Assembly (NCBI GenBank): GCA_963699155.1
Contig: OY969414.1
Location: forward strand, 2,219,757-2,283,756
Reading direction: 5' to 3'
DNA: 64,000 bases
Source: an uncultured Chlamydiales bacterium
Lineage (GTDB): Bacteria; Chlamydiota; Chlamydiia; Chlamydiales; JAAKFR01
Under the pieces are notes generated by a model. It made no database searches. It was not told where the DNA came from and was given only the letters and a program-made list of their open reading frames with translations. Shown here piece after piece: positions 25,167 through 42,899 of the stretch. The position numbers were made by a program, and so were the translations under genes. How positions within the stretch are numbered: the stretch's first letter is position 1; the number at the start of each line of letters is the position of its first letter.

Positions 25167-26903
25167 TCATTTAACTAGTGATGCGATTGTGCGGTGGGTT
25201 TTGAGGGCATCGAACTGTTTTGCCAGCTCCAGCACCTTCTCTTCGGAATGGCCCCCGCTTTGAATTTGCATCTTAACGGTCTCACGAATTTCCATCCATT
25301 CTCGATCGAGCAATTTTTGCACAGTCTCTAAAAAATGGGTTTCGGCCCTCTCTCGGTTCACTTTTTTCTGCAAGAGTTCATCGATCAGCGCAGGATCTTC
25401 GCAATTAGCGGCTAATGTGAACAGATCACTCTTTCCCTCGGTGAGGATTTTCTGAAAAAGGTGACGACAGGGGGGTGTCAGAAAATGTTTCTCAGTGAGA
25501 TATTTTCTTACCGTTGGCAAAAATCCCTCCCCCATCAAGAGCAGCCATCTCAATAGATCCAGCTCCAGAACCCTTTTAGGATCAATGGGGTTGAGAGTGA
25601 GTGCGGCATGGCTTCTCACAAAAGTGGGCGCAAAATGTTCATGCTTCACACCCACCATCTCTTCTGGAACGCGGATCAGAGAGGCCAGTTTACGCAGTGT
25701 CTCATGCACCAAAACAGGGTCATCCCACTCCCCAATCTGTTTTTTCAGCTGTTTCACCAATTCCGCCTTCCCTGCCGGAGAGTCGAGATTGAGCTCTCGT
25801 CCCAAATAACTCACCTGAAAGGCAAGATAGCTCTCCGATCGTTCGATCTCTTCGATCAAGCGAGCCGTGCCAAATTGGCTCAGATAGGCATCTGGGTCGC
25901 TCCCTTTAGGAAGATTGACCACAAAGACTTCGATCCCCCTTTTTTGAAGCAGATCGCCCACTTTAGAAGCAGCCGCTCTTCCCGCATCATCACCATCTAG
26001 AAGCAGATAGCCACTCCTCACTCCCAATTTCTGCAGCTCCTCTGCATGGCTTTCGCCAAAGGCAGTCCCCAATGCAGCGACACTCAAATTAAGACCTGCC
26101 TCGATCAATTTCAAACAGTCGATCTGTCCCTCAACAATGAGAGCCCTCCTCTCTTTGGCAATGCGTCGCCTACAGTAGTTGAGTCCAAACAAAATCCTCG
26201 ACTTCTTAAAGAGCTGAGTTTCAGGTGTGTTGATATATTTTCCGCCAAAAGTCTCTTCCTTATATTTCCGGGCCGAAAAACCGATCACAGCCCCCGCCGC
26301 ATTGCGTATAGGGAACGTAATTCTATCACGAAAGAAGGGCCTTGCCCCTCCCTCAACTAAAAGTCCCGACTCTACCAAGTGGGTCTCAAAGATCTTCTCT
26401 TTCCTCAGAAATGCCTTCAGTCCTGTCCCATCATTCGGGGCAATGCCCACCTCAAATCTCGCAATAAAATCGAGATTCAATCCCCTCTTAAATAAATAGT
26501 GGAGCGCCTCTCTCCCCTCCTCACTATATAATAATGTGGCGTGAAAGTAGTGGCAGGCCAAAGAGCAGGCCTCCTTCAATAAACTCTTATCTGTCCCCCT
26601 CTCTCCCTGATCCTGCCTCTCCAGAGGTACATGAAACCTCTCCGCCAATGCCTCAACGGCATCAACAAAACCTAAATTCATATGCTGCATCAGAAACTGA
26701 ATCGCATCTCCATGAGCTCCACAACCATAACAGTGGTAGTGGGTATCCCCTTTCTGGATCATAAAAGAGGGGCTTTTCTCCTGATGAAAAGGGCACAATC
26801 CCTTATGAGCCGCCCCCGCTCGCTTCAGATCGATATGAGCCGTCACGACCTCCAACAGGTCGATCTTCTCCTTCAGCCTCTCTAAACTCTCTTTCGTAAA
26901 CAT
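25167..26903 (-). CDS. dnaG: DNA primase
   Basis: CPFHQEKSPSF, CYGCG, KYINTPET, VEGQID, DGDDAG. Confidence 0.97.
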   Translation of the reverse strand: MFTKESLERLKEKIDLLEVVTAHIDLKRAGAAHKGLCPFHQEKSPSFMIQKGDTHYHCYGCGAHGDAIQFLMQHMNLGFVDAVEALAERFHVPLERQDQGERGTDKSLLKEACSLACHYFHATLLYSEEGREALHYLFKRGLNLDFIARFEVGIAPNDGTGLKAFLRKEKIFETHLVESGLLVEGGARPFFRDRITFPIRNAAGAVIGFSARKYKEETFGGKYINTPETQLFKKSRILFGLNYCRRRIAKERRALIVEGQIDCLKLIEAGLNLSVAALGTAFGESHAEELQKLGVRSGYLLLDGDDAGRAAASKVGDLLQKRGIEVFVVNLPKGSDPDAYLSQFGTARLIEEIERSESYLAFQVSYLGRELNLDSPAGKAELVKQLKKQIGEWDDPVLVHETLRKLASLIRVPEEMVGVKHEHFAPTFVRSHAALTLNPIDPKRVLELDLLRWLLLMGEGFLPTVRKYLTEKHFLTPPCRHLFQKILTEGKSDLFTLAANCEDPALIDELLQKKVNRERAETHFLETVQKLLDREWMEIRETVKMQIQSGGHSEEKVLELAKQFDALKTHRTIASLVK

Positions 26904-26970
26904 TCCCAAGATATTACTTCCCCATCCCCTAACCGTCAATGCCTCTCACACTCAATCACCTAAATCTTTT

Positions 26971-26999
26971 CTTTGCTTCTTCGCGTCTTTGCGTTGAAT
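26971..26999 (-). repeat. solo arm of the ACGCAAAG-octamer repeat family
   Basis: ctttgcttcttcgcgtctttgcgttgaat, same terminus as 30013-30025. Confidence 0.75.
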
Positions 27000-27051
27000 T
27001 ATTTCTTCAGCCCATTGACACGAAGCCTTACTATACCGTAGCCTTTTGGCT

Positions 27052-29523
27052 ATGTCCATGTCCAGCAACCTCGACGAAATAAAAACAACCCCCATGATGG
27101 AGCAGTGGCATCGCTGCAAGAAAGCTGCCAAAGGGGCTCTCCTCTTTTTCCGCATGGGCGATTTTTATGAGGCCTTTTATGAGGATGCGCGCATTATGGC
27201 CGAAGAGCTCGAGTTGACCCTGACCCAAAGAGGAGGAATCCCGATGAGCGGGGTTCCCTGGCATACCTGTGACAGCTATATCGACAGGCTGGTTGAGAAG
27301 GGATACCGGATTGCGGTCGCAGAACAGACAGAAGATCCCAAAAAAGCGAAGGGTCTCGTCAACCGTGAAATTGTCCGTTTTGTGACACCTGGAACGGTGA
27401 TCCATTCTGGACTCATCCGCGACAAAAGCTACAATTTTATAGCGTCTCTCAGTCAGGTGGGCTCGATTTTTGGTCTTGCTGTCTGCGACATCACTACCAC
27501 CTTCAGCCGAGTTGTGGAGGTCGATTCCCTTCAGGAGCTCATCGATGAGATCTACCGCTTATCACCTACAGAACTGGTGACGACCAAGAAATTCCAGGAA
27601 AAATATCCTACGTTGTTCCGTGAATGTGAAAAAACTCCTGTATCGCTGACCGATGAGTGGCGATTTGAGCACCAGACTGCCCTCACCTATTTGACAAACC
27701 ATTTTCAGCTGCCTCATCTCGACGGTTTTGGACTGAAAGGAATGGTGGCGGCGATCAATGCGGCTGGAGCACTTTTAGCCTATCTTCACGAAGAGCTAGC
27801 TCTTTCGATTACCCATATCCGAGAGGTCAAGCCTTATCCCTTTCATGAGGGTCTTCTGCTCGATAAGACCTGCCAGATGAACTTAGAATTGATCAATCCC
27901 CTCCATGACCACGGGAAAAAGACGACCCTTCTCCATGTGATCGATCATACCCTCACACCGATGGGGGGCAGGCTAATACGGGAGTGGTTGAAAAAACCTC
28001 TTATCGACATCAAGCAGATCCAACTTCGACAGGATGCTGTCGAAGCTTTTTTGCATCTCCCTGAGATTCGCACCCAGCTCCAACGTGATCTGAAAGAGGT
28101 CCGCGATTTGGAACGTCTCATGATGAGAGCCTCCTCAGGTTTTGCCACACCGCGCGATCTGGTCAGCCTCCGCCTCTCGCTAGAGAGGATAGTTCCGATC
28201 AAAAAGGCTGTCCGCAATGTGAGCAGTGAACTGCTTTTTCAGTGCGGAGAACAGCTGTCCGACCTCTCATCGCTTATCCTGCAATTGAAAAATGCGTTGA
28301 TCGATGAACCCCCTCTACGCATCTCTGAAGGCCATATTTTTCGAGATGGCTACCATTCTGATCTCGACCAGTTACGCAGCTTGATGCAAGGGAGCAAAGA
28401 GTGGCTGGCCCGTTATCAAGTCACGCTCAAAGAGCAAACAGGGATCAAAAATCTCAAAGTCAGCTTCAACAAAATTTTCGGCTACTACATCGAAGTGAGT
28501 AAAGGGCAGGCCCACTTGATGCCCACAGCCTTTGACCGCAGACAGACATTGGTCAATAGTGAGCGCTTCGTCTCCCCAGAGTTGAAAGAATATGAAAGCC
28601 GCGTGTTGACAGCAGAAGAGCGGAGCTTGAGCCTTGAGCAGGAGCTCTTCCATCAGTTGAGAAATGAGGTGATTGGCTATGAAAAACCCATCTTCACGAT
28701 GGCCAAAGCGATTGCCGAGATCGATGCGCTTCTCTCTCTTGCCCATGTGGCTCGCCATCGCCGCTTCTGCCGCCCGAAAATTGACTCCAGTCAGCAACTT
28801 TCCATTCTCGAAGGTCGTCATCCTGTTGTCGAAGCCACTGTGGAAAAAGGAACTTTCATCCCGAATGATACTCAACTCGATGATCAGGAGCGGATGATGT
28901 TGATTACGGGTCCCAACATGGCTGGGAAATCGACCTATATCCGCCAAGTCGCTCTCATAGTCATCCTCGCACAAATGGGGAGCTTTGTTCCTGCCTCGGC
29001 AGCCCACATCGGCATCATCGACCGCATCTTCACCCGCATAGGTGCAAGCGACGACCTATCCAGGGGGCATTCGACCTTCATGGTTGAAATGAGCGAGACC
29101 GCTAACATTCTCAATAATCTGACATCCCGCTCTCTCGTCATTCTTGACGAAATTGGACGTGGTACCAGCACCTACGATGGTGTCTCAATCGCCTGTGCAG
29201 TCGCTGAACATCTCCTCTCCACCCGCGCCAAGACCCTCTTCGCCACACACTATTGGGAGCTCACCGAGCTAGAAAAAACAATCCCCGGAGCCGTCAACTA
29301 TCACGCCTCGGTGCAAGAGTGGAACGACTCGATCGTCTTTCTCCATAAAATCTCTCGCGGCGGCACCGATCGCAGCTACGGCATCCATGTCGCCCGCCTC
29401 GCAGGCCTTCCCCTCCCCGTCATCCACCGCGCCACCGCCATCCTCTCCCACCTCGAATCCCGCAAAGACCCCTCCCGCCGCCCCAGGAAAGAATCTGCTG
29501 ATACCCAGTTAACTCTTTTTTAG
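27052..29523 (+). CDS. mutS: DNA mismatch repair protein MutS
   Basis: TPMMEQW, FRMGDFYE, TGPNMAGKSTY, DEIGRGTST. Confidence 0.97.
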   Translation: MSMSSNLDEIKTTPMMEQWHRCKKAAKGALLFFRMGDFYEAFYEDARIMAEELELTLTQRGGIPMSGVPWHTCDSYIDRLVEKGYRIAVAEQTEDPKKAKGLVNREIVRFVTPGTVIHSGLIRDKSYNFIASLSQVGSIFGLAVCDITTTFSRVVEVDSLQELIDEIYRLSPTELVTTKKFQEKYPTLFRECEKTPVSLTDEWRFEHQTALTYLTNHFQLPHLDGFGLKGMVAAINAAGALLAYLHEELALSITHIREVKPYPFHEGLLLDKTCQMNLELINPLHDHGKKTTLLHVIDHTLTPMGGRLIREWLKKPLIDIKQIQLRQDAVEAFLHLPEIRTQLQRDLKEVRDLERLMMRASSGFATPRDLVSLRLSLERIVPIKKAVRNVSSELLFQCGEQLSDLSSLILQLKNALIDEPPLRISEGHIFRDGYHSDLDQLRSLMQGSKEWLARYQVTLKEQTGIKNLKVSFNKIFGYYIEVSKGQAHLMPTAFDRRQTLVNSERFVSPELKEYESRVLTAEERSLSLEQELFHQLRNEVIGYEKPIFTMAKAIAEIDALLSLAHVARHRRFCRPKIDSSQQLSILEGRHPVVEATVEKGTFIPNDTQLDDQERMMLITGPNMAGKSTYIRQVALIVILAQMGSFVPASAAHIGIIDRIFTRIGASDDLSRGHSTFMVEMSETANILNNLTSRSLVILDEIGRGTSTYDGVSIACAVAEHLLSTRAKTLFATHYWELTELEKTIPGAVNYHASVQEWNDSIVFLHKISRGGTDRSYGIHVARLAGLPLPVIHRATAILSHLESRKDPSRRPRKESADTQLTLF

Positions 29524-29553
29524 ATCAAGTTGTTCTGGTATAAGCTTGAGGGC

Positions 29554-29592
29554 AGATTCAACGCAAAGACGCCAAGACGCAGAGGCGCAAAG
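29554..29592 (+). repeat. left inverted-repeat arm of the GxxExxY cassette
   Basis: agattca-acgcaaag-acgccaag-acgcagag-gcgcaaag. Confidence 0.9.
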
Positions 29593-29610
29593 AGGGGTAA
29601 AGAGGGGTAA

Positions 29611-29988
29611 ATGGAAAATGAATTATCTCATGAAATCATCGGTGCTGCGATAGAGGTGCATAAAGTTTTGGGAGGCCCGGGGCTTCTGGAAAGCATTTAT
29701 GAAGCTGCTCTATGCCATGAGTTATCTTTACGAGGGCTAAAATTTGAAAGACAGAGGATAGTACCCGTAGTATACAAAGGAGTCTCTATAAAAGAACCCT
29801 TCTATCTTGATGTACTAGTAGAAAAGAAAGTCATTATTGAGATAAAGGCGACAGAAGAAAAACATCCTATTCATCTAAACCAAATACTGACATACTTACG
29901 ATTAACAGGTATTAAATTAGGTCTACTTATTAACTTTGGAGAAAAGTGCCTCAAAGATGGGATTGGCAGAGTCGTCAATGATCTATAA
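29611..29988 (+). CDS. GxxExxY protein (PD-(D/E)XK nuclease-like fold)
   Basis: IIGAAIEVH, GPGLLESIY, YLDVLVEKKVIIEIKA, QILTYL, GLLINFG. Confidence 0.93.
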   Translation: MENELSHEIIGAAIEVHKVLGGPGLLESIYEAALCHELSLRGLKFERQRIVPVVYKGVSIKEPFYLDVLVEKKVIIEIKATEEKHPIHLNQILTYLRLTGIKLGLLINFGEKCLKDGIGRVVNDL

Positions 29989-30130
29989 CTTTGCGTCTCT
30001 GCGTCTTTGCGTCTTTGCGTTGAATCTTGACGCACGCTTTGCGTCTTGGCGTCTTTGCGTTGAATCTTGACGCACGCTTTGCGTCTTGGCGTCTTTGCGT
30101 TGAATCTTGACGCACGCTTTGCGTCTTGGC
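29989..30130 (-). repeat. right inverted-repeat arm plus three exact 40-bp tandem copies
   Basis: 29989-30027 matches the reverse complement of 29554-29592 at 37/39; gtctttgcgttgaatcttgacgcacgctttgcgtcttggc three times at 30011-30130. Confidence 0.92.
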
Positions 30131-30143
30131 GATTCATTTTTTT

Positions 30144-31994
30144 ATGTTTGATGTGGAGCAGTTGAAACAATTTCCGACGGAGCCTGGGGTCTATCTCATG
30201 AAAGATAGCACCGGGATGGTGCTCTACGTGGGGAAGGCGAAGAATTTGCGGGCCCGCGTGAAACAATATTTTGTGCCTGGGCGGGATGGGCGAGAGATGG
30301 TCCCCTATCTGACGAGCCAGGTGGCGGCGATCGATGTGGTTGTGGTCAGTTCAGAAAAAGAGGCCTTGATTCTGGAGAATAATCTCGTCAAGGAGCATTG
30401 GCCCAAATACAATGTTTTGCTGAAAGATGATAAGTCATTCTTTAGCCTCATGATCAATCATAAGCATGAATGGCCGATGATTCGGATCGTCCGATTTAAA
30501 GGAAAAGCTCCTGCGGGCAATCTCTATTTTGGCCCTTATGCTCACGGCTATGCTGCGAGGCAGACATTGGATTTGCTTAGGAGGCTCTTTCCGATGCGTC
30601 AATGTTCAGACCGGGAGTTGGGCTCGCGAACGCGTCCCTGCATACTCTACGATTTGAAACAGTGCATTGCCCCTTGTGTCTTGAAATGCACCCATGAGGA
30701 ATATAACAGCCTGGTCAAACGGGTTATCGATTTTCTACGTGGTCATGATTCGGCTATTCTGAAAGAGTTGAAGACAGAGCGAGAGGCAGCGGTCGAGATG
30801 CTCGCTTTTGAAAAGGCGGAAAGGATCCATCAAACGATCCTCTACATCGAAAAGACGCTGGAAAAACAGAAAGTGGAGCAGGCGGGAATGGCCGACCGGG
30901 ATGTGATCGCCCTCTATCGGGAAGCCGATCGGGTGGCTTTGTCACAGCTGATTTTCCGTGAAGGAAAGCTCATGCGCTCATATGACCGTTTTTTCAACCA
31001 TAATGCGCAAAGTGATGCCGAATTGCTCTCCTCCTTTATCTTGCAAATGTATGGGGGTCAAGAACTCCTTCCCCACGAGATTCTTCTTCCTGTCACCCTT
31101 GCAGATGCAGAAGCTATATCTGAGTTGATTGCGACGGGGAAAAAGAGAGGAGTCGCTATTTTACATCCTCAACGAGGTAACAAAAAAGCGCTCGTGGAGA
31201 TGGCTGAAGCAAATGCGAAAGTGAGATTTTCCCTTGAAAAAGAGGAGGCCAATGAAAAAGAGAAGATACTTTTGGGGCTTGAGGAGACATTCCATCTCAC
31301 AAACTATCCAGAGCGCATCGAGTGCTTTGATAATTCCAACATCGCAGGTACAGAGCCAGTCAGTGCTATGGTTGTCTTCACTGATGGAGAAAAGGATTCA
31401 CAGCGCTATCGGAAATATGCGCTGAAAAAAACGGCTCCCTCCGATGATTATGGGGCGTTGAAAGAGGTTCTAGAGCGGCGCTATAAAAGAGCGAAACAAG
31501 AAGAGGAGGCGCTGCCCGATCTGATCTTGATCGATGGGGGCAGGGGCCATCTCAACATGGCTCTCGAGGTTCTTTCTGAACTAGATATCAGCACTGTTGA
31601 TCTCATTTCCATCGCCAAGGAAGAGGGACGGCATGATAAAGGGATGACAGCAGAGCAGATCTTTCTTCCGGATGTTCCAGAGCCGTTCATTTTAAAGCCT
31701 AACTCTCCCATCCTCTTTTATCTTCAACGCATCCGAGATGAAGCCCACCGTTTTGCCATCACCTATCAGCGGCAGAGGCGGAAGAAAAAGACTTTTGCCA
31801 GCGCTCTCGATCAGTTACCAGGGATAGGACCGATTAAAAAGCAGAGGCTCTTACGCCACTTTGGCAGCCTCAAACGGATTCTTGCGGCCACTCCCGATGA
31901 GTGGCAATCGATTCCAGGAATCACTAAGAGGGATATCGAGACTCTGAACTCCTTGAAGAAGCAGCAGCTTGATGCGGATGAAAGCTCACATTAA
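30144..31994 (+). CDS. uvrC: excinuclease ABC subunit C
   Basis: PGVYLM, YVGKAKNLR, ECFDNSN, PDLILIDGG, RDEAHRFA. Confidence 0.97.
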   Translation: MFDVEQLKQFPTEPGVYLMKDSTGMVLYVGKAKNLRARVKQYFVPGRDGREMVPYLTSQVAAIDVVVVSSEKEALILENNLVKEHWPKYNVLLKDDKSFFSLMINHKHEWPMIRIVRFKGKAPAGNLYFGPYAHGYAARQTLDLLRRLFPMRQCSDRELGSRTRPCILYDLKQCIAPCVLKCTHEEYNSLVKRVIDFLRGHDSAILKELKTEREAAVEMLAFEKAERIHQTILYIEKTLEKQKVEQAGMADRDVIALYREADRVALSQLIFREGKLMRSYDRFFNHNAQSDAELLSSFILQMYGGQELLPHEILLPVTLADAEAISELIATGKKRGVAILHPQRGNKKALVEMAEANAKVRFSLEKEEANEKEKILLGLEETFHLTNYPERIECFDNSNIAGTEPVSAMVVFTDGEKDSQRYRKYALKKTAPSDDYGALKEVLERRYKRAKQEEEALPDLILIDGGRGHLNMALEVLSELDISTVDLISIAKEEGRHDKGMTAEQIFLPDVPEPFILKPNSPILFYLQRIRDEAHRFAITYQRQRRKKKTFASALDQLPGIGPIKKQRLLRHFGSLKRILAATPDEWQSIPGITKRDIETLNSLKKQQLDADESSH

Positions 31995-32475
31995 AGACGA
32001 ACTCCCCATCATACTGACATTGCTTTTTCAAAGTGAGAACAAGAACCCGTTCGATTTCGTTGAGGATATGTTCTCGGCTGCTTTCTGAAAGAGGAGGAAT
32101 ATTCGCCATGATCTCAATCTTTCCCTGCGCTCTGCCAAATACTTCGCAAGCCACAGATTGGCCAGGGAAAAACTTTTGTAAGCTCTCCTCTGCAAAATGG
32201 GCAAGAACGCGATCTTCTATAGAAACCCCACCCATTTTTAAGAGAAAATAGCGGCGTCTGCTCAGCCGAAAAAGTGCCGCTAAAAAGAGCAGACCAGAGA
32301 GAAATAGGCAAAGTCCAAAGTAGGAGAGCCTCTCCTGATGATTCAGGATAAGCGCCCTGATAGCCAATTCTAGGTTGGGAAGATAGCGGATCAGAAAGAG
32401 AAAAAGGCCCCCACAAATCATCAGGAAGCCAAGGAGTAAACCCAAAAGTGAAATGAGAAGATGTTGCCTTTTCAT
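31924..32475 (-). CDS. hypothetical membrane protein
   Basis: Two N-terminal TM segments; directly follows the Asp23-family gene. Confidence 0.7.
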   Translation of the reverse strand: MKRQHLLISLLGLLLGFLMICGGLFLFLIRYLPNLELAIRALILNHQERLSYFGLCLFLSGLLFLAALFRLSRRRYFLLKMGGVSIEDRVLAHFAEESLQKFFPGQSVACEVFGRAQGKIEIMANIPPLSESSREHILNEIERVLVLTLKKQCQYDGEFVFNVSFHPHQAAASSRSSESRYPS

Positions 32476-32478
32476 ACC

Positions 32479-32898: not shown

Positions 32899-32955
32899 CA
32901 ATCCCCCATTTAATTTGAAAAAAAACCACCTAGAAAGTAAAATTGTAGATTATCT

Positions 32956-33423: not shown

Positions 33424-33744
33424 TCTATCGGCTAACTCGACGTCGACGCCCAAGACCTCGAAATCGTCGCCGACCTCATCGCCCAAGAATTCACCACTTC
33501 GCTTTAGCTGTCGAGAAACTGGCTAACTCACTTTCAATTATTGGAGTGAAATCGTCGAAAAAACAAGATGGTACAGAACCTCAAAAAAAACCTCTTGTTG
33601 GGATTTCAGTAGACTTTTGATGGAAGAGCTTGAAGCGGCCTAAGGGGCGAGACTTCAGAGGGTGGCGCCGAGCAACGGCTCGGCAATTGAGTGGCAGCGG
33701 CCCATTGAGGGCCGCGAGCGATCTTCGGTGCCAGAGGTGGGTTG

Positions 33745-34050
33745 TTACCAGCTTGCTTTGGTGACGCCGGGGATCATGCCCAGGCCGGCCAGTTCGCGGA
33801 AACAGAGACGTGAGACTTTAAACTTACGGAGATAGCCGTGAGGGCGACCAGTAAGCTGGCAGCGATTTTTGAGGCGCGAGGGTGAGGTATCTCGGCGCAT
33901 TTTATTGAGGGCTACGCGGGCAGCTTCCCTCTCTTCTTCAGAAATATGGATATTTTTGGATTGACTACGAAGCTCAGTACGACGCTGCCAATTTAATTTT
34001 ACAAGCTTTTCACGCTTTTTTTGTTTTGCAATTGAAGAAGTTTTTGCCAT
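33745..34050 (-). CDS. rpsN: 30S ribosomal protein S14
   Basis: [27 protein letters not shown]. Confidence 0.97.
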
Positions 34051-34482: not shown

Positions 34483-34833
34483 ATGGTTTCTTTCAACTTT
34501 CCAAAGGGATTACGCCTATTAAATGGTCACCAGTTCCGCCGCGTCTCAAAACAGGGAGGCAGCTGCACAGGTCACTTCCTCTCCCTCACCCTCTGCCAAG
34601 CTGATACCCTAAAATTGGGGTTGACTGTCTCCCGAAAGTTTGGAAATGCCGTCGAACGCAACCGGTTTAAGCGGCTCGTGAGAGAGGCCTTCCGCCTTTC
34701 CCAACATGACCTTCCCCCACTCCACCTCAATGTCCGCCCCACCTCCCCTGCAGCCCAATCAGCCACCCTCCACGAGATTCAGTCTGAACTGAAAGCCCTT
34801 TGTGCTTCATGGACAACAAGCGCAGTGAGCTAA
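34483..34833 (+). CDS. rnpA: ribonuclease P protein component
   Basis: LGLTVSRKFGNAVERNRFKRLVREAFR. Confidence 0.95.
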   Translation: MVSFNFPKGLRLLNGHQFRRVSKQGGSCTGHFLSLTLCQADTLKLGLTVSRKFGNAVERNRFKRLVREAFRLSQHDLPPLHLNVRPTSPAAQSATLHEIQSELKALCASWTTSAVS

Positions 34834-34842
34834 TTCTTTCTG

Positions 34843-34942
34843 AAGATTCAACGCAAAGACGCTAAGACGCAAAGACACAAAGAAGGAGGGTACGCGAAGC
34901 GCTCCTATTTCTTTGCGCCTCTGCGTCTTTGCGTTGAATCTT
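34843..34942. mobile_element. gene-less (MITE/REPIN-like) copy of the ACGCAAAG inverted-repeat element
   Basis: aagattcaacgcaaagacgctaagacgcaaagacacaaagaa ... ttctttgcgcctctgcgtctttgcgttgaatctt with a ~24-nt spacer. Confidence 0.85.
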
Positions 34943-34953
34943 GACGAAGAACT

Positions 34954-35925
34954 TTAACGGGCGGTGGTGGAGCGGATGTAGTTGAGGGAGTGGGCGATCT
35001 CGTCGTGCATGGTGGAAGGGGCTGTCTGGAGCGCTTTTTCGGCATGGAGTAGGGCCTTCTGCATGAGATCAGCCTCCATGTAGTGCTGAGCGATCATCAT
35101 CTCGATGCGCCAGACATTTTGGTCATCTTTTAGCCCGAAATGGTCGAGATAGTCTAATAGGGGTCGCACTGCTTCATCTGCAGGAATCGGCTTTTGGGAG
35201 AGATCCTGGAAATCGATCAAAGCTAGCGTAAAGTGGAGGGTGAGTTGGTTATCGGGATCAAGAGAAGTGATTTTTTCACGCAGCTGCTGCGTGGATTTTT
35301 TTTGGCCTTCACCTCGTTCAACAAGCAGGCGATACTTTTCGAGAAAAAAGAAAGAGTCTTCCGTTTTGAGCCCCGCATCAAGGATGCTCTCTTGCTCCTT
35401 CTGTCTGGCCAATTCTTGAGCAATCTGATAGAGCTTTTTCAATGCAGCCGGATCTGAACTCAGATTCTTCATTCCTTCGATCAATTGGCCATCTTGGCCG
35501 AGAATATGGACCAGATCATCTGCAAACTGCTCTCCACTCTCAGGGAGATAACCGATCTGAGCAATCACCCTTTCCTGGGAATCGAGCAATAGAAGTGTGG
35601 GCGTCTCTTGCACATGGAAGCGCTTTTTCAGCTCTTGGTTTTGTGCCATCTTCTTTTCTGAAAGGGCGGTATGTTCAGGAAAGTCGATTTCCATGCAGAG
35701 GAATCTATGAGCGATTTTTTGCTCAAAGGCGAGGGTATCGAGGACCTCACGTTTCATCCACATCGCTTCCCCAGACCAATCGGAGCCATTGAAAAAAAGG
35801 AGGATCGGCTTTTCATCTTGCCGACTAAGTGCAACCACTTTGTCATAATCGGTCTGCCATTGGAGTGCAGAAAGGGAAAATGACAATGAGAAGCTTAAAA
35901 AAAATAAGATCGCAAAAAAATTCAT
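34954..35925 (-). CDS. exported thioredoxin-fold protein with helical C-terminus (DsbH paralog)
   Basis: Signal peptide; KPILLFFNGSDW, IDFP, TPTLLLLD; CXXC replaced by SGEA. Confidence 0.8.
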   Translation of the reverse strand: MNFFAILFFLSFSLSFSLSALQWQTDYDKVVALSRQDEKPILLFFNGSDWSGEAMWMKREVLDTLAFEQKIAHRFLCMEIDFPEHTALSEKKMAQNQELKKRFHVQETPTLLLLDSQERVIAQIGYLPESGEQFADDLVHILGQDGQLIEGMKNLSSDPAALKKLYQIAQELARQKEQESILDAGLKTEDSFFFLEKYRLLVERGEGQKKSTQQLREKITSLDPDNQLTLHFTLALIDFQDLSQKPIPADEAVRPLLDYLDHFGLKDDQNVWRIEMMIAQHYMEADLMQKALLHAEKALQTAPSTMHDEIAHSLNYIRSTTAR

Positions 35926-36014
35926 CGCCTAATCCTCTTTAAAGGGCCTCAAAAAGCTGCAAGAGCGCAAATAGTTTTCTGAGAGGCCCCTCATGGAGAG
36001 GGGCTCTCTTTTAA

Positions 36015-36563
36015 TTAATATTGCAACAGAGTTCTCAGATAATCGGCGTAGGCCTTTCCACCACCAGGGCGGTAACCCGTTTCTGCAATAAAGTTCTCGT
36101 TGGAATCGAGAATGATGATGGTAGGATAACCTGTCACACCATATTTTTGCTTGAGTTGGGTATTTTGCTGTTGGTGATCCGCTGGTAGCTGTTGGTTCAT
36201 AGGAAAGTCAACGTCAACAAAGACGAAGGCAGTGCCCACTTGGCTAGCAAACTCTGGAGATGAGAAAATCTCTTGCTGCATTTTTTTGCACCAACCACAC
36301 CAGTCTGACCCTGTAAAAAAGAGAAGCAGAGGCTTATGGCTTCTGGCTGCTTCTTGCACAGCTTGTTGATAATTGGTGAACCAATTGATCTGAGTAGGTT
36401 GTGCAGGTGGTGTCGCTTGTGCTGTTGGATTTGTAGGTGCTGTTGGATTTGCGGGTGCTCCCTGAGAATGGTTAACATCAGTTGGTGCAGAATCAGCAAA
36501 TGAAGGGATGACCCCAAATGTGACAATCGCACAACAGATCGCGACAAAAATTTGTTTGTTCAT
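36015..36563 (-). CDS. dsbH: periplasmic thiol-disulfide oxidoreductase DsbH-like
   Basis: FFTGSDWCGWC, VDFP, GYPT; signal peptide. Confidence 0.85.
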   Translation of the reverse strand: MNKQIFVAICCAIVTFGVIPSFADSAPTDVNHSQGAPANPTAPTNPTAQATPPAQPTQINWFTNYQQAVQEAARSHKPLLLFFTGSDWCGWCKKMQQEIFSSPEFASQVGTAFVFVDVDFPMNQQLPADHQQQNTQLKQKYGVTGYPTIIILDSNENFIAETGYRPGGGKAYADYLRTLLQY

Positions 36564-36646
36564 TTTTTTCTCCTCCTAATAGAGAACATGCTATTTACGA
36601 CGTTATATCATTTACTAAAACAGCATAAAATGGTATACTTTTCTTC

Positions 36647-37165
36647 ATGCGATTTCATCAAATCTCTGATAACGAACAGTTTCCACCTACGATCGTCATC
36701 CGCCATAAGAAGGAAAATCTCAAAAAATGTTCATTGCGCGGTTTAGAAAACCGTTCCGATTTTTTATTTTATCGCTATCCGCTGCAAGCGCTTCCTGCGT
36801 TGGAAAATTACCTGCTCTTATCCTTAGAGAGTGAAGTAGATCTCTCGATAGACGATCGTGATTCTGGCCTACTCCTCCTCGATGCCACCTGGAAATATGC
36901 TCAAGAGATGGGGAAAAAAATCGATTTTCCTGCAACGCTCCAGAAGCGGCGCCTCCCGGGAGAGTTGATCACAAGCTATCCTCGTCGCCAGCAAGACTGT
37001 CTCGATCCGCAACATGGCTTAGCTTCTCTCGAAGCGATCGCAGCGTCCTATGCGATTTTGGGAAGGTCGATTGAGGGGCTTCTCGATCATTATTATTGGA
37101 AAGACTCTTTTATCGAAAAAAACAAAGGGTTTCTGATAAATTGCCAGCATGCAAACAAATGTTAA
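36647..37165 (+). CDS. Tsr3/DTW-like aminocarboxypropyltransferase
   Basis: HKKENLKKCS, LLLLDATW, RRLP, SYPR, LASLEAIAA. Confidence 0.7.
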   Translation: MRFHQISDNEQFPPTIVIRHKKENLKKCSLRGLENRSDFLFYRYPLQALPALENYLLLSLESEVDLSIDDRDSGLLLLDATWKYAQEMGKKIDFPATLQKRRLPGELITSYPRRQQDCLDPQHGLASLEAIAASYAILGRSIEGLLDHYYWKDSFIEKNKGFLINCQHANKC

Positions 37166-37775
37166 AAGCCGCTTTGCTTTTCATCATCAAAATGAGGCTC
37201 TGCTTTTCCAATTTCTTTTGCATGAATCCCTCTCTGCTCACAACATTTTGAGACAAAAACCCTCACCACTGCTTCTCTGCCAAGTGATTGGACCGATCGA
37301 TCGAGAAAATGTCTGGCAAAGCATGTTGGGTCATCTGCCACGTCTGCGCCACTATTGCTCTCTCTTTATCAAATATTTTGATGAAGGGGCTTCTCCTTTA
37401 TCCCAACAGTTGCACGATACACTAGAAAGGGCCCAAAAGGTAGCTCGCAAATGCTCCCTATTTCAAGAGAAAAGTCTAGATGAACAAAAAATGCTCTACA
37501 GGCCACTCAAAAAGGAGCTTGTCAATGTGATCAAACTCCTTTTGCAGAAAGTATACGACTATAAAGAGAATCCATCGATTCTCCTTTTCTTGCTGCGCCA
37601 CCAAGAAGAGTGCCGTACCGTTTTTCGGAAACCGATTGTCAAGGATCTCTTTTCTGACATTTTTCCCGATGGCAGAGATCAGGCTTACGCCTTTCTTTCT
37701 GAAAAATTTTCACAAAAAGGGTTTGAACATCTGATTCCCTCAATAGAAACCTACCTCAAACAGCTGAGATTTTAG
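37149..37775 (+). CDS. hypothetical protein
   Basis: 208-aa ORF overlapping both neighbours in an operon. Confidence 0.7.
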   Translation: MQTNVKSRFAFHHQNEALLFQFLLHESLSAHNILRQKPSPLLLCQVIGPIDRENVWQSMLGHLPRLRHYCSLFIKYFDEGASPLSQQLHDTLERAQKVARKCSLFQEKSLDEQKMLYRPLKKELVNVIKLLLQKVYDYKENPSILLFLLRHQEECRTVFRKPIVKDLFSDIFPDGRDQAYAFLSEKFSQKGFEHLIPSIETYLKQLRF

Positions 37776-38419
37776 TGAAAGCCCATCGCGAGTTGGCTAC
37801 ATTAGTACGTGACACCCGCCTCTATCTCCAAACATTGGTGAAGGGAAAGGTAGAACCATTAGTGAAGGGAAAAGCAGAACTGTTGGTGAAGGGAAAGGTA
37901 GAGCCAGTGGTAAAGGGAGAAAGTGCCGTTGAGAAACCCGCTCCAAAAGAAGCTCCCAAAGTGGTAGTGAAGGCAGAAAGAGCCCCACAGCCTCTTCTTC
38001 CCAATCCCAAGTGGGAGCTCCATCCGATGGAACAAGCGACGCTCCCAGTGGGGCTACAGGGGAGAATTGCCTCCTCAACACAAGTTTCGGATCCCCCATT
38101 AGATCTTTGCTTAGTCTTGCCAGAAGAAAATAGCCACCACAGGCTTTTTTTAGAAAACGTCGCACGCGCCGTCACACGCTCTTTCGCTTCATCGGTCGTT
38201 GTGCTTTATCAAGAAACCCTTTTCAAAAAACCGATCAGCCGTTTTCTTCTTCTCCCTGCGGATCTCTTGCAGAAAAAATTTCCCAAAGCACGTCCCCACC
38301 ATCCGATCGTCGATGGCGGAGTAACCTGGATTCCTTTGGAACCACTCGACCTCTATGCCCTCGACATCAACGCAAAACGAGCTTTATGGATGGCTATTCA
38401 ACGTTTGTTTCAGTCATAG
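37775..38419 (+). CDS. hypothetical protein upstream of priA with 8-aa tandem repeats
   Basis: LVKGKxEx repeats; C-terminal KRALW. Confidence 0.7.
   Translation: MKAHRELATLVRDTRLYLQTLVKGKVEPLVKGKAELLVKGKVEPVVKGESAVEKPAPKEAPKVVVKAERAPQPLLPNPKWELHPMEQATLPVGLQGRIASSTQVSDPPLDLCLVLPEENSHHRLFLENVARAVTRSFASSVVVLYQETLFKKPISRFLLLPADLLQKKFPKARPHHPIVDGGVTWIPLEPLDLYALDINAKRALWMAIQRLFQS
37835..37924 (+). repeat. 24-bp in-frame tandem repeat (~3.7 copies)
   Basis: ttggtgaagggaaaggtagaacca-type units. Confidence 0.85.
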
Positions 38420-40617
38420 TTGACCTGGGACTCAATCGTCAGCTCGATTATGGGGTCCCACAGGAATGGGAGGGGCGGATTAAAAGAGGGATGCAGGTCG
38501 AAGTGCCCCTCCGTGGACAGTTGTGCGTCGGGTATATCTTCGAAATTAAGAAAGAGGCGAGCCATCCCAAGGTCCTCCCCCTCCATTCTCTCTTATCCAA
38601 TGATGAGCTTTTAACGGAGGAGATCTTCGAGCTTGTCATCTGGATGAGTCGCTACTACAATGCCCCTCTCAACCAGGTCCTCAAAACCGTTTTACCTGCA
38701 ACCATCCGCAATCAGACGCCACACAAAGAACAATTTTTTGTGAAACGCTCCTTGTCATTAGAGAAACTGCGGAAGCTCTGTATCGAGCTGCGCGAAAAGT
38801 TTCCCTCACAAGCACGCGCCCTCGATCATCTCTTAATGGCAGAGAAAGGAATGCTGCTCACTGAACTGATGGAAAAGGCTGAGATCTCACGCAGCCCCGT
38901 CGATACATTGGAAAAACAGGGCTACATCACTTTAGAAAAGGTCTGTTTCGACCGCTCGCCACTTCAGGGCGAGGAATATTTCAAAACAACCCCCAAGCAG
39001 CTCAACGAGGCGCAAGGCCAAGCTTTTGAGAAAATTACCCAGGCAGTGAAAGAGAATAAATTTGAAACCCATCTGCTCTACGGCATTACGGGGAGTGGAA
39101 AGACTGAGATCTACCTCCAGGCCATCGAATATGCGCTCGCTTTAGGAAAAAGTGCCCTCATGCTAGTACCTGAGATCTCTTTGACTGGACAGACGATCGA
39201 GCGCTTTCGCTCACGCTTTGACCAGCGGATCGCCATCCTTCACCACCGCCTAAGCCCCGGAGAGCGCTCTGACGAGTGGCGCCGGATCAAACGGGGAGAG
39301 GCCGAGATTGTCATCGGAGCCAGATCAGCCCTCTTTTGCCCTCTCCGAAACCTTGGCCTCATCATCATCGATGAGGAGCATGATGGCGCCTACAAACAGA
39401 GTGAGGAGAGCCCCTGCTATCATGCCCGCGATGTGGCCGTGATGCGCGGCAAGCTCAGCAAGGCGGTCGTCATCTTAGGAACCGCCACTCCAAGTCTCGA
39501 AAGCTACCACAATGCCAAAACGGGAAAGTACCAGATGACATTCCTACCCACACGTGCTTCCAAGGCATTTTTACCGAAAGTCCACATTGTCGACATGAAA
39601 CCTGAATATGAAAAAGCGCGCGGCTTTACCTGCTTTTCAGAACTTTTGATCGGCAAAATGAAAGAGCGGCTCGAACTGGGTGAACAGACCATTCTCTTCC
39701 TCAACCGGCGCGGCCACAACACCAGCTTGCAGTGCAAAGCGTGCGGCCATATTTTTAGCTGCCCCTCTTGCGATTTGACCCTCACCTTCCATCGTGGGGA
39801 AAATACCTTAGCGTGTCATCTCTGTGACCACCATATCTCCCCTCCCCCCAGCCGTTGCCCCAAATGCAACACGCAAGAAACTCTTAAATATCATGGTATC
39901 GGTACAGAGTCCGTAGAAAGAGCTGTGCACGCCCTTTTCCCGGAAGCACGCACCCTTCGCATCGACAGCGACACGACGCGGCATAAAGGGAGCCATGAAC
40001 GGCTCCTCAGAAGCTTCAGCACCCAAAAGGCTGATATTCTCATCGGCACCCAGATGGTCGCCAAAGGGCTCCACTTCCCCTCCGTCACGCTCGTCGCTGC
40101 CATCAATAGCGATGGAGGCCTCCATATCCCCGACTTCCGCTCTTCGGAACGCGTCTTTCAGCAGATCACCCAAGTCGCCGGCAGAGCAGGCCGCGGTGAG
40201 CTTCCCGGGGAGGTGATCATCCAGACTCAGATGCCCGATAACCTCACCATTCTCCAAGCCTCACAGCATAACTACGACGCCTTCTTCCACTCTGAAATTG
40301 AGAGCCGCAAACTCTTCGGCTTTCCCCCCTTCACCCACTTTGTCAAACTCACCTTCAGTGGCCCTGACTCCCTCAAAACCCAACAAGAGGCCGAAAAATT
40401 CCGCGCCGTAATCACTCCCCCACCCCACTCTCAAGTCCACCCCATCGTCCCCTCCGGCTACGCCAAAATCCGTGACATGTACCGCTTCCAGTGCCTCATC
40501 CGCGGCCCCAGCATCTACGCCATCAACCACTCCCTCGACCAAGCTGTGAAGCGCTATGCATTACCACGATCGATCCGCCTCCATATCGACATCGACCCAA
40601 TCTCTACTTATTATTAA
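38386..40617 (+). CDS. priA: primosomal protein N'
   Basis: GITGSGKTEIY, DEEH, four CxxC, QVAGRAGR. Confidence 0.97.
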   Translation: MDGYSTFVSVIVDLGLNRQLDYGVPQEWEGRIKRGMQVEVPLRGQLCVGYIFEIKKEASHPKVLPLHSLLSNDELLTEEIFELVIWMSRYYNAPLNQVLKTVLPATIRNQTPHKEQFFVKRSLSLEKLRKLCIELREKFPSQARALDHLLMAEKGMLLTELMEKAEISRSPVDTLEKQGYITLEKVCFDRSPLQGEEYFKTTPKQLNEAQGQAFEKITQAVKENKFETHLLYGITGSGKTEIYLQAIEYALALGKSALMLVPEISLTGQTIERFRSRFDQRIAILHHRLSPGERSDEWRRIKRGEAEIVIGARSALFCPLRNLGLIIIDEEHDGAYKQSEESPCYHARDVAVMRGKLSKAVVILGTATPSLESYHNAKTGKYQMTFLPTRASKAFLPKVHIVDMKPEYEKARGFTCFSELLIGKMKERLELGEQTILFLNRRGHNTSLQCKACGHIFSCPSCDLTLTFHRGENTLACHLCDHHISPPPSRCPKCNTQETLKYHGIGTESVERAVHALFPEARTLRIDSDTTRHKGSHERLLRSFSTQKADILIGTQMVAKGLHFPSVTLVAAINSDGGLHIPDFRSSERVFQQITQVAGRAGRGELPGEVIIQTQMPDNLTILQASQHNYDAFFHSEIESRKLFGFPPFTHFVKLTFSGPDSLKTQQEAEKFRAVITPPPHSQVHPIVPSGYAKIRDMYRFQCLIRGPSIYAINHSLDQAVKRYALPRSIRLHIDIDPISTYY

Positions 40618-40643
40618 ATGCAAAGACACAGAGACGCAAAGAG
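40617..40643 (+). repeat. degenerate solo arm of the ACGCAAAG repeat
   Basis: aatgcaaagacacagagacgcaaagag right after the priA stop. Confidence 0.65.
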
Positions 40644-40650
40644 ATAAGAA

Positions 40651-41022
40651 TTAGATGCCCCCAAAATCTTCAGAATTGGGCTGGTGAGGCGGTTTGCGGG
40701 CGATGGAGGGTTCAGCGATGTAGAGGTCGATCTTCTCTTTCTGTAATTTCTCCCTTAAGGTTATTGAACCCGCAAGGATCAGCCCGATAGCCGCTGGTAC
40801 GCATAGGTCTATTCCAAATACTCCCGATCCCACAGATGGCAATGGACCTTTGAATTTAAGAAAAACTGTAAAGGCAAGAATCCCTAAAACGAGTCCAATT
40901 ACCAGAAGAGTTGTCCCGCTTGCAATACCGCTGATTGCCAAACTACGACGTGTTCTTCCTGCTTCGGTAAGCCCTTCAGAACCATGTCTGGAATAAGCAT
41001 CTGAAATTGATTGAATTGCCAT
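40651..41022 (-). CDS. small Inc-like protein
   Basis: Ser-rich start, two hydrophobic lobes, AT-rich upstream region. Confidence 0.65.
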   Translation of the reverse strand: MAIQSISDAYSRHGSEGLTEAGRTRRSLAISGIASGTTLLVIGLVLGILAFTVFLKFKGPLPSVGSGVFGIDLCVPAAIGLILAGSITLREKLQKEKIDLYIAEPSIARKPPHQPNSEDFGGI

Positions 41023-41161
41023 AATTATCCTAACTAAATTGTTACTATAGTTAAATTATAGCTTAGTATTGTTAATGAGTTATAAAGATTAATTGCTAAA
41101 GGAATTTGTTGATAGAAAAAGGATTGAAGGAGAGGGGGGATTGATGTATGGTAGTGGGGCT

Positions 41162-41320
41162 ATGAGGCTGGTGAGAGCGTTTAGAGAGGCAAGTCGGCAG
41201 ACGAAGATCTTTTGGATCATCGCTGTGGGGGTTTTTGTGCTCTCTACTGGCATGTGTTTATATCCTTTTTTTTGGTTTCCGCAACATCGGAGTAGTGTCG
41301 AGGTGGTAAGTGATTCCTAA
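41162..41320 (+). CDS. possible small single-TM protein
   Basis: MRLVRAFREASRQTKIFWIIAVGVFVLSTGMCLYPFFW..., overlaps the lysS start. Confidence 0.35.
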   Translation: MRLVRAFREASRQTKIFWIIAVGVFVLSTGMCLYPFFWFPQHRSSVEVVSDS

Positions 41321-42899
41321 ACCTGAATATCATGAACATGAAGAGTTTCAGAATCGCTCGAAGAAATTGGAGGAGATTCGAGGGGCGGGAGTTGACCCTT
41401 ATCCTCATAAGTTTGAGCCGACTACGAGCGCCAGGCAGATCTTGGAGAAGTATGAGGGTCAAGAGGTGGGCCACAGCGAAGAGGCTGGAGAAGGGAAGAC
41501 GCCTCTTGTCAGAGTGGCTGGACGATTGATTTTGTTTCGCGCGATGGGGAAAAATGCCTTTGCCCATATCCAGGAGTCGACCCATAAGATTCAGCTGATG
41601 TTTAACCGCGACTTGACGCAGGTGGAGGGGTTGGGGAGAGGTGAACAGGTGGATGGGCTGGAGACAAGTGAGACACCGCTCAAGTTCATCGAGAAAAAGA
41701 TCGATTTGGGCGACATTATTGGAGTGGAAGGGCACCTCTTTAGGACGCAGAAGGGCGAACTGACCATTTTTGTGAAAAAGCTGACCTTGTTATGTAAGAC
41801 GCTACTGCCGCTGCCTGAAAAGCATAGTGGGTTGATCGATAAAGAGATGCGCTACCGTAAACGGTGGCTCGATCTGATCACCCATGAAGAGGTGCGTAGG
41901 GTCTTTATCATCCGGAGCAAGATGGTCGGAGTGATTCGTAACTTCATGAATGAGTGGAAGTTCATGGAAGTAGAAACGCCGGTTGTACAAAGTATCTATG
42001 GAGGTGCCGAGGCGCGCCCATTTACCACTCATCTCAATGCGATCGGACAAGATATGTTTCTGAGGATCTCATTAGAGATCTCTCTCAAGAAAATTCTCAT
42101 TGGTGGAATGGAGAGGATCTACGAGATTGGAAAGATTTTCCGTAACGAAGGGATCGATCGTACGCATAATCCTGAGTTTACGATGTTGGAAGCTTATGCG
42201 GCTTACTGGGACTATAATGATATGATGCACTTCTTGGAGCAGATGATCGAAAGGATCGCTCTCGAGCTACATGGCACGACGAAAATCAATTATACTGTTG
42301 AAGATGAGAATGTTGTGGTCGATGTGAAAGCCCCTTGGCGACGACTCAGTATGAAAGGAAGCATCAAGGAGTTTGCGGGAATCGATGTCGATGCCCTCTC
42401 CGATACCCAGATGAGACAGATATTGGTAAATGAAACAGAGGTAGATCCGAAATTCATCGATCTGAGTCCACGAGGTGGTTTAATCGCTCTTCTTTTTGAT
42501 GAGTTTGTCTCAAATAAACTGATTCAGCCGATCCATATCACCGACCACCCGATCGAAACGACGCCTCTTTGTAAACCTCACAGAGATCCTACTTTAAGGA
42601 AGGAAGGTTTTGTGGAGCGCTTCGAAAGCTACTTCTTAGGAAAAGAGCTCTGCAATGCCTATTCAGAGCTCAATGATCCCCAAATCCAACGGCAGCTCCT
42701 GGAAGAGCAGTTTGCCAAACGGGAACGGGGAGATGATCAAGCACATCCCCTTGATGAAGAATTCCTTGAGGCGATCTGCCAGGGCATGCCTCCTGCAGGC
42801 GGTATCGGCATCGGAATCGACCGATTGACGATGCTCTTCACAAATTCACCCTCCATTCGAGATGTCCTTTACTTCCCAATCATGAAAATGATATCTTAA
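41310..42899 (+). CDS. lysS: lysine--tRNA ligase (class II)
   Basis: GGAEARPF, FRNEGID, HNPEFTMLE, GIGIDRL. Confidence 0.97.
   Translation: MIPKPEYHEHEEFQNRSKKLEEIRGAGVDPYPHKFEPTTSARQILEKYEGQEVGHSEEAGEGKTPLVRVAGRLILFRAMGKNAFAHIQESTHKIQLMFNRDLTQVEGLGRGEQVDGLETSETPLKFIEKKIDLGDIIGVEGHLFRTQKGELTIFVKKLTLLCKTLLPLPEKHSGLIDKEMRYRKRWLDLITHEEVRRVFIIRSKMVGVIRNFMNEWKFMEVETPVVQSIYGGAEARPFTTHLNAIGQDMFLRISLEISLKKILIGGMERIYEIGKIFRNEGIDRTHNPEFTMLEAYAAYWDYNDMMHFLEQMIERIALELHGTTKINYTVEDENVVVDVKAPWRRLSMKGSIKEFAGIDVDALSDTQMRQILVNETEVDPKFIDLSPRGGLIALLFDEFVSNKLIQPIHITDHPIETTPLCKPHRDPTLRKEGFVERFESYFLGKELCNAYSELNDPQIQRQLLEEQFAKRERGDDQAHPLDEEFLEAICQGMPPAGGIGIGIDRLTMLFTNSPSIRDVLYFPIMKMIS

Follow-up and report, generated by a model that had tools for sequence, protein, structure and literature searches.

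The window analysed here, a 64,000-nt stretch of an uncultured Chlamydiales genome, contains places where the plus strand turns from C-rich to G-rich beside repeats and accessory genes, which raises the question of whether these flips are real and what writes them into the adjoining core genes. They are genuine and present across the whole genome. All six hand counts of C and G in 60-nt lines given in a preliminary description of this DNA were exact on recount, and the skew profile of the window switches from C-rich to G-rich at about 21.5, 29.5, 34.9 and 40.7 kb and in other places (Table 1). Short contig pieces from three runs of one study match several of the skewed stretches with 0 differences, which argues only against consensus error; the runs may come from the assembly's own study. 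A C-rich patch at 5.0–5.75 kb has its source in proline-codon repeats inside an accessory gene.

Table 1. Features of the window. C and G counts are on the gene's own strand; the last four gene features lie outside 26400–41700, the range of the preliminary description.
Feature	Position	Strand	Remarks
dnaG 5′ part	26570–26903	−	G-shifted on own strand, C-rich on plus; four-fold C4/G13 of 35
Family A repeat, single copy, between divergent dnaG and mutS	26970–27000	−	Commonest palindromic repeat family
mutS end, C ramp	29220–29523	+	Four-fold C44/G3 of 58
Family A repeat, left arm	29554–29596	+	
GxxExxY protein (TIGR04256, PD-(D/E)XK_3 family)	29611–29988	+	Accessory cassette between mutS and uvrC
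Family A repeat, right arms	29989–30131	−	Three 40-nt tandem units
uvrC 5′ part, G-shifted	30144–30475	+	Four-fold C14/G23 of 44
Repeat site, family other than A	33619–33721		Between convergent genes
Gene adjoining this repeat site	33745–34050	−	Four-fold C24/G3
rnpA, C-rich over full length	34483–34833	+	Ends at repeat hairpin; C32/G6 of 60
Family A inverted pair	34834–34951		Between convergent genes
DsbH-like gene 3′ end, own-strand C ramp	34954–35255	−	C26/G5 of 45; plus strand G-rich because the ramp is on minus
priA end, C ramp	40315–40617	+	Four-fold C34/G2 of 49
Degenerate family A copy at priA stop	40611–40653	+	60% to reference
Accessory gene without family	40651–41022	−	C10/G11, no skew of its own
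lysS G-rich leader and 5′ part	41100–41645	+	Four-fold C9/G17 of 41; divergent from the accessory gene, ~450 nt to nearest repeat copy
Ribokinase-family gene 3′ end	14870–15170	−	C40/G0 of 52, window's strongest ramp; faces accessory genes, no repeat site called
Glycine-tRNA ligase gene end, C ramp	21262–21565	+	C26/G3 of 39; repeat cluster 21637–22341 next
fabF end, C ramp	56272–56575	−	C33/G3 of 52; repeats and IS4-family remnant next
RAYT match, genome's only one	7354–7830	−	Own inverted repeats on both sides, 7303–7358 and 7892–7947
Read-contig matches with 0 differences	26863–27078, 29081–29248, 30064–30292, 34585–34794, 34888–35049, 40269–40419		

The origin-like polarity that had been described, C-rich to the left and G-rich to the right, holds genome-wide. 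For 180 repeat sites in intergenic DNA, skew at 100–200 nt is −0.111 on the left and +0.145 on the right and falls to −0.017 and +0.010 at 2–3 kb; sharp flips (|z| > 5 in overlapping windows) run from C to G 435 times and from G to C 43 times. Of 97 flip peaks, 19 have a repeat motif no more than 200 nt away, another 60 fall at non-core DNA of other kinds and the remaining 18 in DNA that is core only; the corresponding numbers for 3,000 random core-gene ends are 143, 949 and 1,908.

Read 5′ to 3′ on either strand towards a transcription-unit boundary, C rises and G falls somewhat over about 0.4–0.7 kb, forming a ramp with a decay length of about 440 nt and a local effect that is over within 1 kb. 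In a fit of log-odds, the amplitude at gene ends is 0.11 within operons, where the skew is flat, 0.52 at plain boundaries, 1.25 beside an accessory neighbour and 1.74 beside a repeat neighbour. Gene starts, rightly listed as affected in the preliminary description, carry the mirror image at about 40% of the strength (−0.22 plain, −0.42 accessory, −0.71 repeat). The further claim that repeat and accessory sites exceed plain operon boundaries is borne out at ends (C fraction 0.619, n = 60, versus 0.498, n = 353; permutation P = 1e-4) and at starts (n = 25 versus 390; permutation P = 7e-4).

The wording ‘centred on repeats’ and ‘independent of gene direction’, by contrast, was right only in part. 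Gene ends (sense) are shifted about 2.5–3 times more than gene starts (antisense), which contradicts independence of direction. The skew is indeed strongest at repeats, but lnC/G stays at 1.65–2.02 over distances of 0–1,200 nt from the repeat (rho = −0.10, P = 0.31, n = 102), and 288 operon ends without repeats have values of 1.06–1.14, versus 0.62 at 366 intra-operon ends. Equal skew at repeat-free boundaries had been named as the observation that would overturn the description; skew exists there, but not at equal strength. It is anchored on the end of the core gene, not on the repeat, and repeats are not needed.

The ramp follows the transcript and not the stop codon, because where the last gene is short it extends into the second-last gene (lnC/G 1.03 in 18 genes versus 0.54 in 253). 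An accessory gene directly downstream on the same strand goes with a higher lnC/G (1.17 in 42 genes versus 0.56 in 328), and one directly upstream has no effect (0.62 in 29 genes versus 0.66 in 339). Where a transcript running past the boundary would carry the accessory gene in sense, the ramp is on the whole stronger, although the values are suggestive only (ends, 1.62 versus 1.32 otherwise, P = 0.10; starts, 0.14 versus 0.36, P = 0.32). In non-coding DNA, the first 20 nt past the stop are mildly skewed (C 0.22–0.28, G 0.16–0.21). Ramp strength was predicted neither by downstream hairpin strength (rho = −0.01 at 310 non-repeat ends), nor by conservation at unit ends, taken as a stand-in for expression (rho = 0.08), nor by repeat age or copy number (23/26 family A sites, 20 near consensus, giving little power).

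Silent codon positions hold most of the skew. It is seen at four-fold and at two-fold sites, and amino-acid composition, which the preliminary description had named as a possible cause, was rejected. At ramps, the gain of C is much the same against T (+0.85), A (+0.74) and G (+1.13) and appears in each of the eight four-fold families, with A/T neutral (+0.11); the effect is context-free and additive, and amino acids are shifted too. This is the pattern of a preference for the product base, and also the signature of a rut site. YC dimer content climbs with C, with no preference beyond composition, and no other motif is preferred; G-quadruplex, Chi-like and KOPS-like words were considered and rejected: no Chi- or KOPS-like word is enriched in ramps beyond codon content, nor is a purine-rich word that has a leading-strand bias of about 3:1 genome-wide.

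These observations leave little room for the mechanism first proposed, in which RAYT or GxxExxY proteins would nick the repeats again and again and leave a footprint through outward single-strand exposure, error-prone repair synthesis or origin-like initiation. We regard it as very improbable, and the present data mostly rule it out, even though the polarity fits, the largest amplitude is found at repeats, and family A is expanded here (90 exact matches versus 0–7 in 40 relatives), in the lineage with the strongest skew. First, amplitude does not decay with distance from the repeat, and skew is present at the repeat-free ends and at repeat-free inserts (in one, C25/G0 of 33). Second, every repeat seed with enough sites behaves alike and single copies act on both sides, contrary to the suggested link with RAYT or GxxExxY activity; nothing points specifically to the one RAYT of the genome or to its GxxExxY genes (2 full and 6 partial matches), for whose function we found no account in the open literature. 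Third, the base changes are not those of deamination, as single-strand exposure would predict: the expected rise of A over G or T over C is absent (G/A at two-fold sites −0.20 beside repeats versus −0.16 within operons). Raised divergence is likewise absent (amino-acid difference 0.24 versus 0.26; four-fold difference 0.64 versus 0.66, near saturation). Fourth, replication skew shows one global switch near 0.33 Mb and 1.6 Mb, and the local flips differ from it in size, reach and dependence on direction: the repeat amplitude of 1.74 is about 9 times the leading/lagging difference of about 0.19, and the effect is equal on both replichores. Conversion by cDNA from transcript ends was dismissed, the genome having no reverse transcriptase match.

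The reading that we prefer, holding it with about equal belief and doubt on the strength of the sequence, is that selection on RNA for Rho-type termination insulates acquired DNA from sense and antisense read-through. Weak selection would raise C at silent sites towards unit boundaries, since C-rich, G-poor and weakly folded RNA favours Rho loading; such RNA may also slow the polymerase if CTP is scarce. Sense transcripts would then end with the operon, and antisense transcripts would be cut off before they pass out of a gene start. The benefit would be larger, and the ramp steeper, next to nuclease, transposase, toxin–antitoxin or hairpin DNA into which read-through could run, so that repeats and cassettes would be the thing insulated and not the cutting agent. 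The model assumes loose ribosome–polymerase coupling, such that Rho could reach the RNA of the last 100–150 codons.

Several lines of evidence bear on this model. The excess of C over G on the RNA before termination that is expected of rut sites is present: the last 300 nt have C 0.329 and G 0.214 beside repeats, 0.294 and 0.219 at other ends, and 0.248 and 0.240 within operons. Secondary structure is low despite a higher GC content (−33.8 kcal at GC 0.547 beside repeats versus −35.8 at 0.477), and folding minus that of synonymous shuffles is 0.03 versus −1.41 kcal (61 genes versus the first 120 intra-operon genes). Intrinsic terminators are scarce, at 69 of 894 unit ends (intra-operon background 25 of 556); the same detector finds them in E. 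coli at 30 of 110 unit ends (background 3 of 42). Ends with an intrinsic terminator are no less C-rich (0.538 in 14 genes versus 0.496 in 323, P = 0.49). The NusG gene is intact, and Rho scores above the cut-off in 38 of the 41 genomes searched. In this assembly rho lies in three reading-frame pieces, with a core 93% identical to that of the relative G002; 14 of 827 conserved genes are split in the same way, and because very conserved long genes are among them, the split suggests an assembly error. No genus-specific Rho residues appear among 29 sequences.

Other observations count against the preferred reading. In E. coli, ribosomes shield coding RNA from Rho. The sense ramp sits in coding sequence and so lacks the untranslated RNA of a rut site, which is provided, by definition, only by the antisense ramp at gene starts. 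This position in translated sequence and the lack of a YC preference both weigh against Rho, as do convergent pairs, in which each ramp turns the read-through RNA of its partner G-rich, and the absence of compensation between fixed and free C (rho = +0.44). Across 139 accessory blocks, the amplitude on the left goes with that on the right (rho = 0.31, P = 2e-4), as it also would under a DNA process centred on the site. Should termination nevertheless be the cause, a bacterium nearly without hairpin terminators would place termination signals inside coding sequence and tune them to the risk posed by the neighbour, recoding host genes whenever foreign DNA settles alongside; this would depart from the E. 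coli shielding rule and offer a handle on chlamydial termination and coupling.

A different, unlikely account, which the correlation between flanks would fit, is that the ramps are not terminator signals but the trace of a strand- and base-specific DNA process at gene-transfer hotspots, a form of conversion or repair, modulated by transcription, that would fix G on the strands pointing outward. Accessory DNA would be exchanged by double recombination within the core genes on either side; the donor fragment's outward 3′ tails belong on both flanks to the G-rich strand, and a strand- and base-specific edge in pairing or mismatch resolution would fix G over the scale of a recombination tract. The ramps do lie in core genes flanking variable DNA, peaking at core/accessory junctions, and the context-free, additive effect that also reaches amino acids, its restriction to this lineage and a ComEC-type gene all fit such a polar fixation bias, as does the reported excess of recombination in core genes beside hotspots (PMC5635113). 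Set against it are the dependence on direction around one and the same block, with a shift at the gene end about double that at the gene start (0.230 versus 0.129; 66 blocks, P = 0.004), the absence of a shift below a directly adjacent upstream accessory gene, the shift at plain core–core boundaries and the lack of Chi- or KOPS-like enrichment. We know of no repair pathway with such a strand and base rule. Were this process real, codons and some amino acids of core genes would be rewritten within about 0.5 kb, and the ramps would record where and for how long the genome has exchanged DNA.

Transcription-linked mutation or repair, which we also think improbable, would need no selection: polymerases would pile up where hairpins, AT-rich inserts or head-on boundaries stall them, and strand-specific repair protecting template G, or errors biased by R-loops, would build up C on the sense strand. 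It would explain why the skew tracks transcript geometry and direction and why its shape is smoothly exponential; Mfd (in two frame pieces) and a Y-family polymerase are encoded, and unexplained gradients of a similar kind are described for fungi (PMC3315797). However, equal shifts through transitions (T→C) and transversions (A→C, G→C), independent of the neighbouring bases, are unusual for mutation, and near junctions the odds of sharing a base with G002 show no clear change (C 1.35–1.44 versus 1.45), a weak comparison given that 67% of four-fold sites differ, which is near saturation. The sign in E. coli, where sampled gene ends are G-shifted, is opposite.

The extra skew was gained in this lineage, at its own insertions. 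The C fraction of the mutS end is 0.75 here and 0.40 in G002, and most relatives have no ramp there. G002 also carries a repeat after mutS and, with repeat families of its own and a high-copy dispersed element, is not a clean repeat-free control; other genera were compared through 54 short loci.

Known systems share some of these traits. Rho-dependent terminators of E. coli (Dar and Sorek 2018, PMC6061677) have the same C-over-G bias and little structure in the RNA, the same tie to REP hairpins, and a tie to ends without U-tract terminators that may also apply here; there, however, the bias is mild and the rut lies downstream of the 3′ hairpin or REP, whereas here the bias lies upstream, in the last 100–150 codons. 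In Bacilli, where genes are under runaway transcription, Rho leaves a purine bias in codon usage (Dierksheide et al. 2026, PMC13323073) and antisense strands likewise become better Rho targets, but pyrimidines are avoided along whole genes, whereas here C is gained towards unit ends, U is neutral and the neighbour sets the strength. Silencing of acquired DNA and of antisense RNA by Rho is on record for other bacteria (Cardinale 2008, as reviewed in PMC12360218) and resembles the guarding by termination proposed here, but it is described as acting within the AT-rich foreign DNA, whereas the signal here sits in flanking core genes; chlamydial Rho is active (PMC7755916). The fungal gene-end skews (McLean and Tirosh 2011, PMC3315797) are also position-dependent at four-fold sites, with A/T near neutral, amino acids affected and the cause unsettled, and the CTP-limitation idea may apply here; in unicellular fungi the sign is opposite (C at starts, G at ends) and the unit is the gene and not the operon, and the text consulted reports no link to acquired DNA. 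Gene-transfer hotspots whose core flanks recombine (Oliveira et al. 2017, PMC5635113) occupy the same genomic places, with no mention of strand skew in the text consulted. Within the open literature, we found no earlier report of such C ramps in bacteria. Whatever its cause, the ramp marks operon ends and insertion hotspots from sequence alone, and it confounds codon-usage and origin predictions in the genus.

The skew flips are real and genome-wide, strongest in the lineage of the genome under study (G000) and graded by adjoining foreign DNA. Six hand counts in the preliminary description were all exact on recount, and the polarity that it reported, C-rich to the left and G-rich to the right on the plus strand, holds around 180 intergenic repeat sites genome-wide, peaking at 50–200 nt and fading over ~1 kb. 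Sharp C-to-G flips outnumber G-to-C flips tenfold, and 79 of 97 strong flip peaks lie at repeats or other non-core DNA, compared with 36% of random core-gene ends. The window, positions 2,219,757–2,283,756 of a single 2.40-Mb contig, carries Protochlamydia outer-membrane proteins (Pom), DsbH-like genes and a fused glycine-tRNA ligase, markers that we take to indicate an environmental chlamydia. Across the genome as a whole, the replication skew is of the usual kind and weak, with a single minimum at ~0.33 Mb and a single maximum at ~1.6 Mb.

The skew is carried by silent sites. In a joint logistic fit to core genes (95,525 four-fold sites with C or G), the log-odds amplitude of C versus G at gene ends was 0.11 inside operons, 0.52 at plain boundaries, 1.25 beside an accessory neighbour and 1.74 beside a repeat (decay 436 nt); the corresponding gene-start amplitudes were −0.02, −0.22, −0.42 and −0.71 (decay 674 nt). 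Each strand thus gains C on approaching a boundary, and the gain on the sense strand is ~2.5–3 times that on the antisense strand, so that the skew, contrary to what had been proposed, is not independent of gene direction. This ramp, the rise of C over G towards the end of a transcription unit, extends into the second-last gene when the last is short, and is equally strong on both replichores. Within it, the gain of C is similar relative to T, A and G, with a slight fall in G, no change in A/T and no neighbour-base or motif effect seen. Amino-acid usage moves a little in this direction too, by a net +0.96 C and −0.98 G for every 100 codons at unit ends.

Genes were called with our own dicodon finder (2,209 calls, 88.7% coding), and a unit boundary was assumed wherever the strand switched or a gap reached 40 nt or more. 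Core genes are the 991 orthologues shared with G002, a relative of the same genus (median identity 73%), and accessory genes are those without a match of at least 45% in 2.4 of 2.585 Mb of the G002 main contig, a cut-off that takes in fast-evolving genes too. Such blurring of the proxy classes should weaken the contrasts rather than make them.

Repeats are not the centre of the skew. All 13 repeat seeds with enough sites show roughly −0.1 to −0.3 on the left and mostly +0.1 to +0.3 on the right, at single copies too, with seed E weakest. However, the ramp is also present at 288 repeat-free unit ends, and an accessory neighbour with no repeat raises it more than twofold (p = 1e-9 for gene ends, p = 1e-4 for gene starts). 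At gene ends its strength also holds over distances of 0 to 1,200 nt to the nearest repeat, a result that insertions made afterwards between the two could blur. Among the sharpest cases is a repeat-free two-gene insert, presumably a nucleotidyltransferase–HEPN pair judging by eye from motifs, in an operon whose G002 counterpart is uninterrupted; the gene end upstream of the insert has C25/G0 and the gene start downstream of it C9/G15. A same-strand accessory gene affects the ramp when downstream and has no effect when directly upstream. Skew amplitudes on the two flanks of accessory blocks are correlated, a pattern also compatible with two less likely DNA-level explanations, polar conversion at recombination hotspots and transcription-linked repair.

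Comparison with relatives, with substitutions between G000 and G002 near saturation, links the skew largely to present context. G000 skew tracks its own surroundings (a term of +0.144 ± 0.021 for accessory or repeat context) much more closely than those in G002 (+0.048 ± 0.021); G002 skew has an own-boundary term of +0.074 ± 0.020 and a small accessory term (+0.021 ± 0.015). Twelve genes lying within operons in G002 yet facing accessory DNA in G000 give lnC/G (log ratio of C to G) of 1.66 versus 0.43. One observation speaks against an origin that is wholly derived: 26 genes whose starts follow a repeat in G000 are G-shifted in G002 also (−0.04 versus ~−0.2). The end ramp is weaker in G002 (0.65 versus 0.39) and in a second relative, G003 (0.77 versus 0.54 in the 90 kb examined), and none was seen among 54 short loci from other genera and families; the mutS ramp is strong in G000, weak in G002 and absent from most of 28 other genomes. 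Escherichia coli (250 kb) has the opposite sign (−0.39 versus −0.31 at ends, −0.10 versus −0.26 at starts). Exact matches to family A, the commonest palindromic repeat family of G000, number 90 in G000 and 0–7 in 40 relatives. The literature searched, with subscription journals outside its coverage, yielded no report of such ramps in bacteria.

The features observed are those that selection for Rho action would leave: a product-base preference, with C up, G down and A and U neutral, and a C gain tied to transcript ends, more strongly on the more transcribed strand. Hairpin-plus-U terminators are scarce in G000 and NusG is intact. An assembly fault probably accounts for the splitting of rho: its core is 93% identical to that of G002, and similar splits affect 14 of 827 conserved genes. 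Frame splits in mfd and several other long, highly conserved genes among the 14 are most likely polishing errors. Grading of the ramp by neighbour fits the known role of Rho in silencing acquired DNA (PMC12360218). Against Rho, the ramp sits in translated RNA, non-coding DNA is only mildly skewed, the ramps show no YC preference beyond composition, and unit ends that have a terminator are not poorer in C than the rest. E. coli rut sites lie downstream of REP or hairpins, unlike the ramp (PMC6061677). In a possible variant, adapted with reversed sign from the CTP-limitation idea of McLean and Tirosh (PMC3315797), scarce CTP would slow polymerase, and no Rho loading on translated RNA would be needed. 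The ramp resembles a C-over-G termination signal in its action but does not share the untranslated position of rut sites, and for this reason we do not class it among classical rut sites.

Features located in the window, on the G000 contig (C1) and in G002
Feature	Location	Observation
542-aa accessory protein	window 4910–6538	Proline-glycine repeats, causing a local C-rich patch; no match in NCBIfam or Pfam; may be host-interacting
Two Pom genes in tandem	window 22480–24492	Beside a repeat cluster
GxxExxY nuclease-family gene	window 29554–30131	Between mutS and uvrC, inverted family A repeats on both sides; a repeat occupies this position in G002 too
Possible 49-aa hydrophobic ORF	window 41162–41311	Overlaps lysS start within G-rich leader; no Pfam match
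rho (locus L052)	C1 ~89,800–91,200	Three reading-frame pieces
Long tandem family A arrays	C1 520,308–520,771 and 2,337,293–2,338,135	Periods 50 nt and 125 nt
Dispersed element and several palindromic repeat families absent from G000	G002, loci L031–L050 and L083–L182	Dispersed element at ~135–175 places

Of 20 multi-copy sites of family A, 17 have a head-to-head arrangement, and six further places carry partial GxxExxY matches; the association of these repeats with the GxxExxY gene suggests a repeat–nuclease mobile unit. Separately, a purine-rich word around GGGGAG has a ~3:1 leading-strand bias across the whole genome and is a candidate KOPS- or Chi-like signal.
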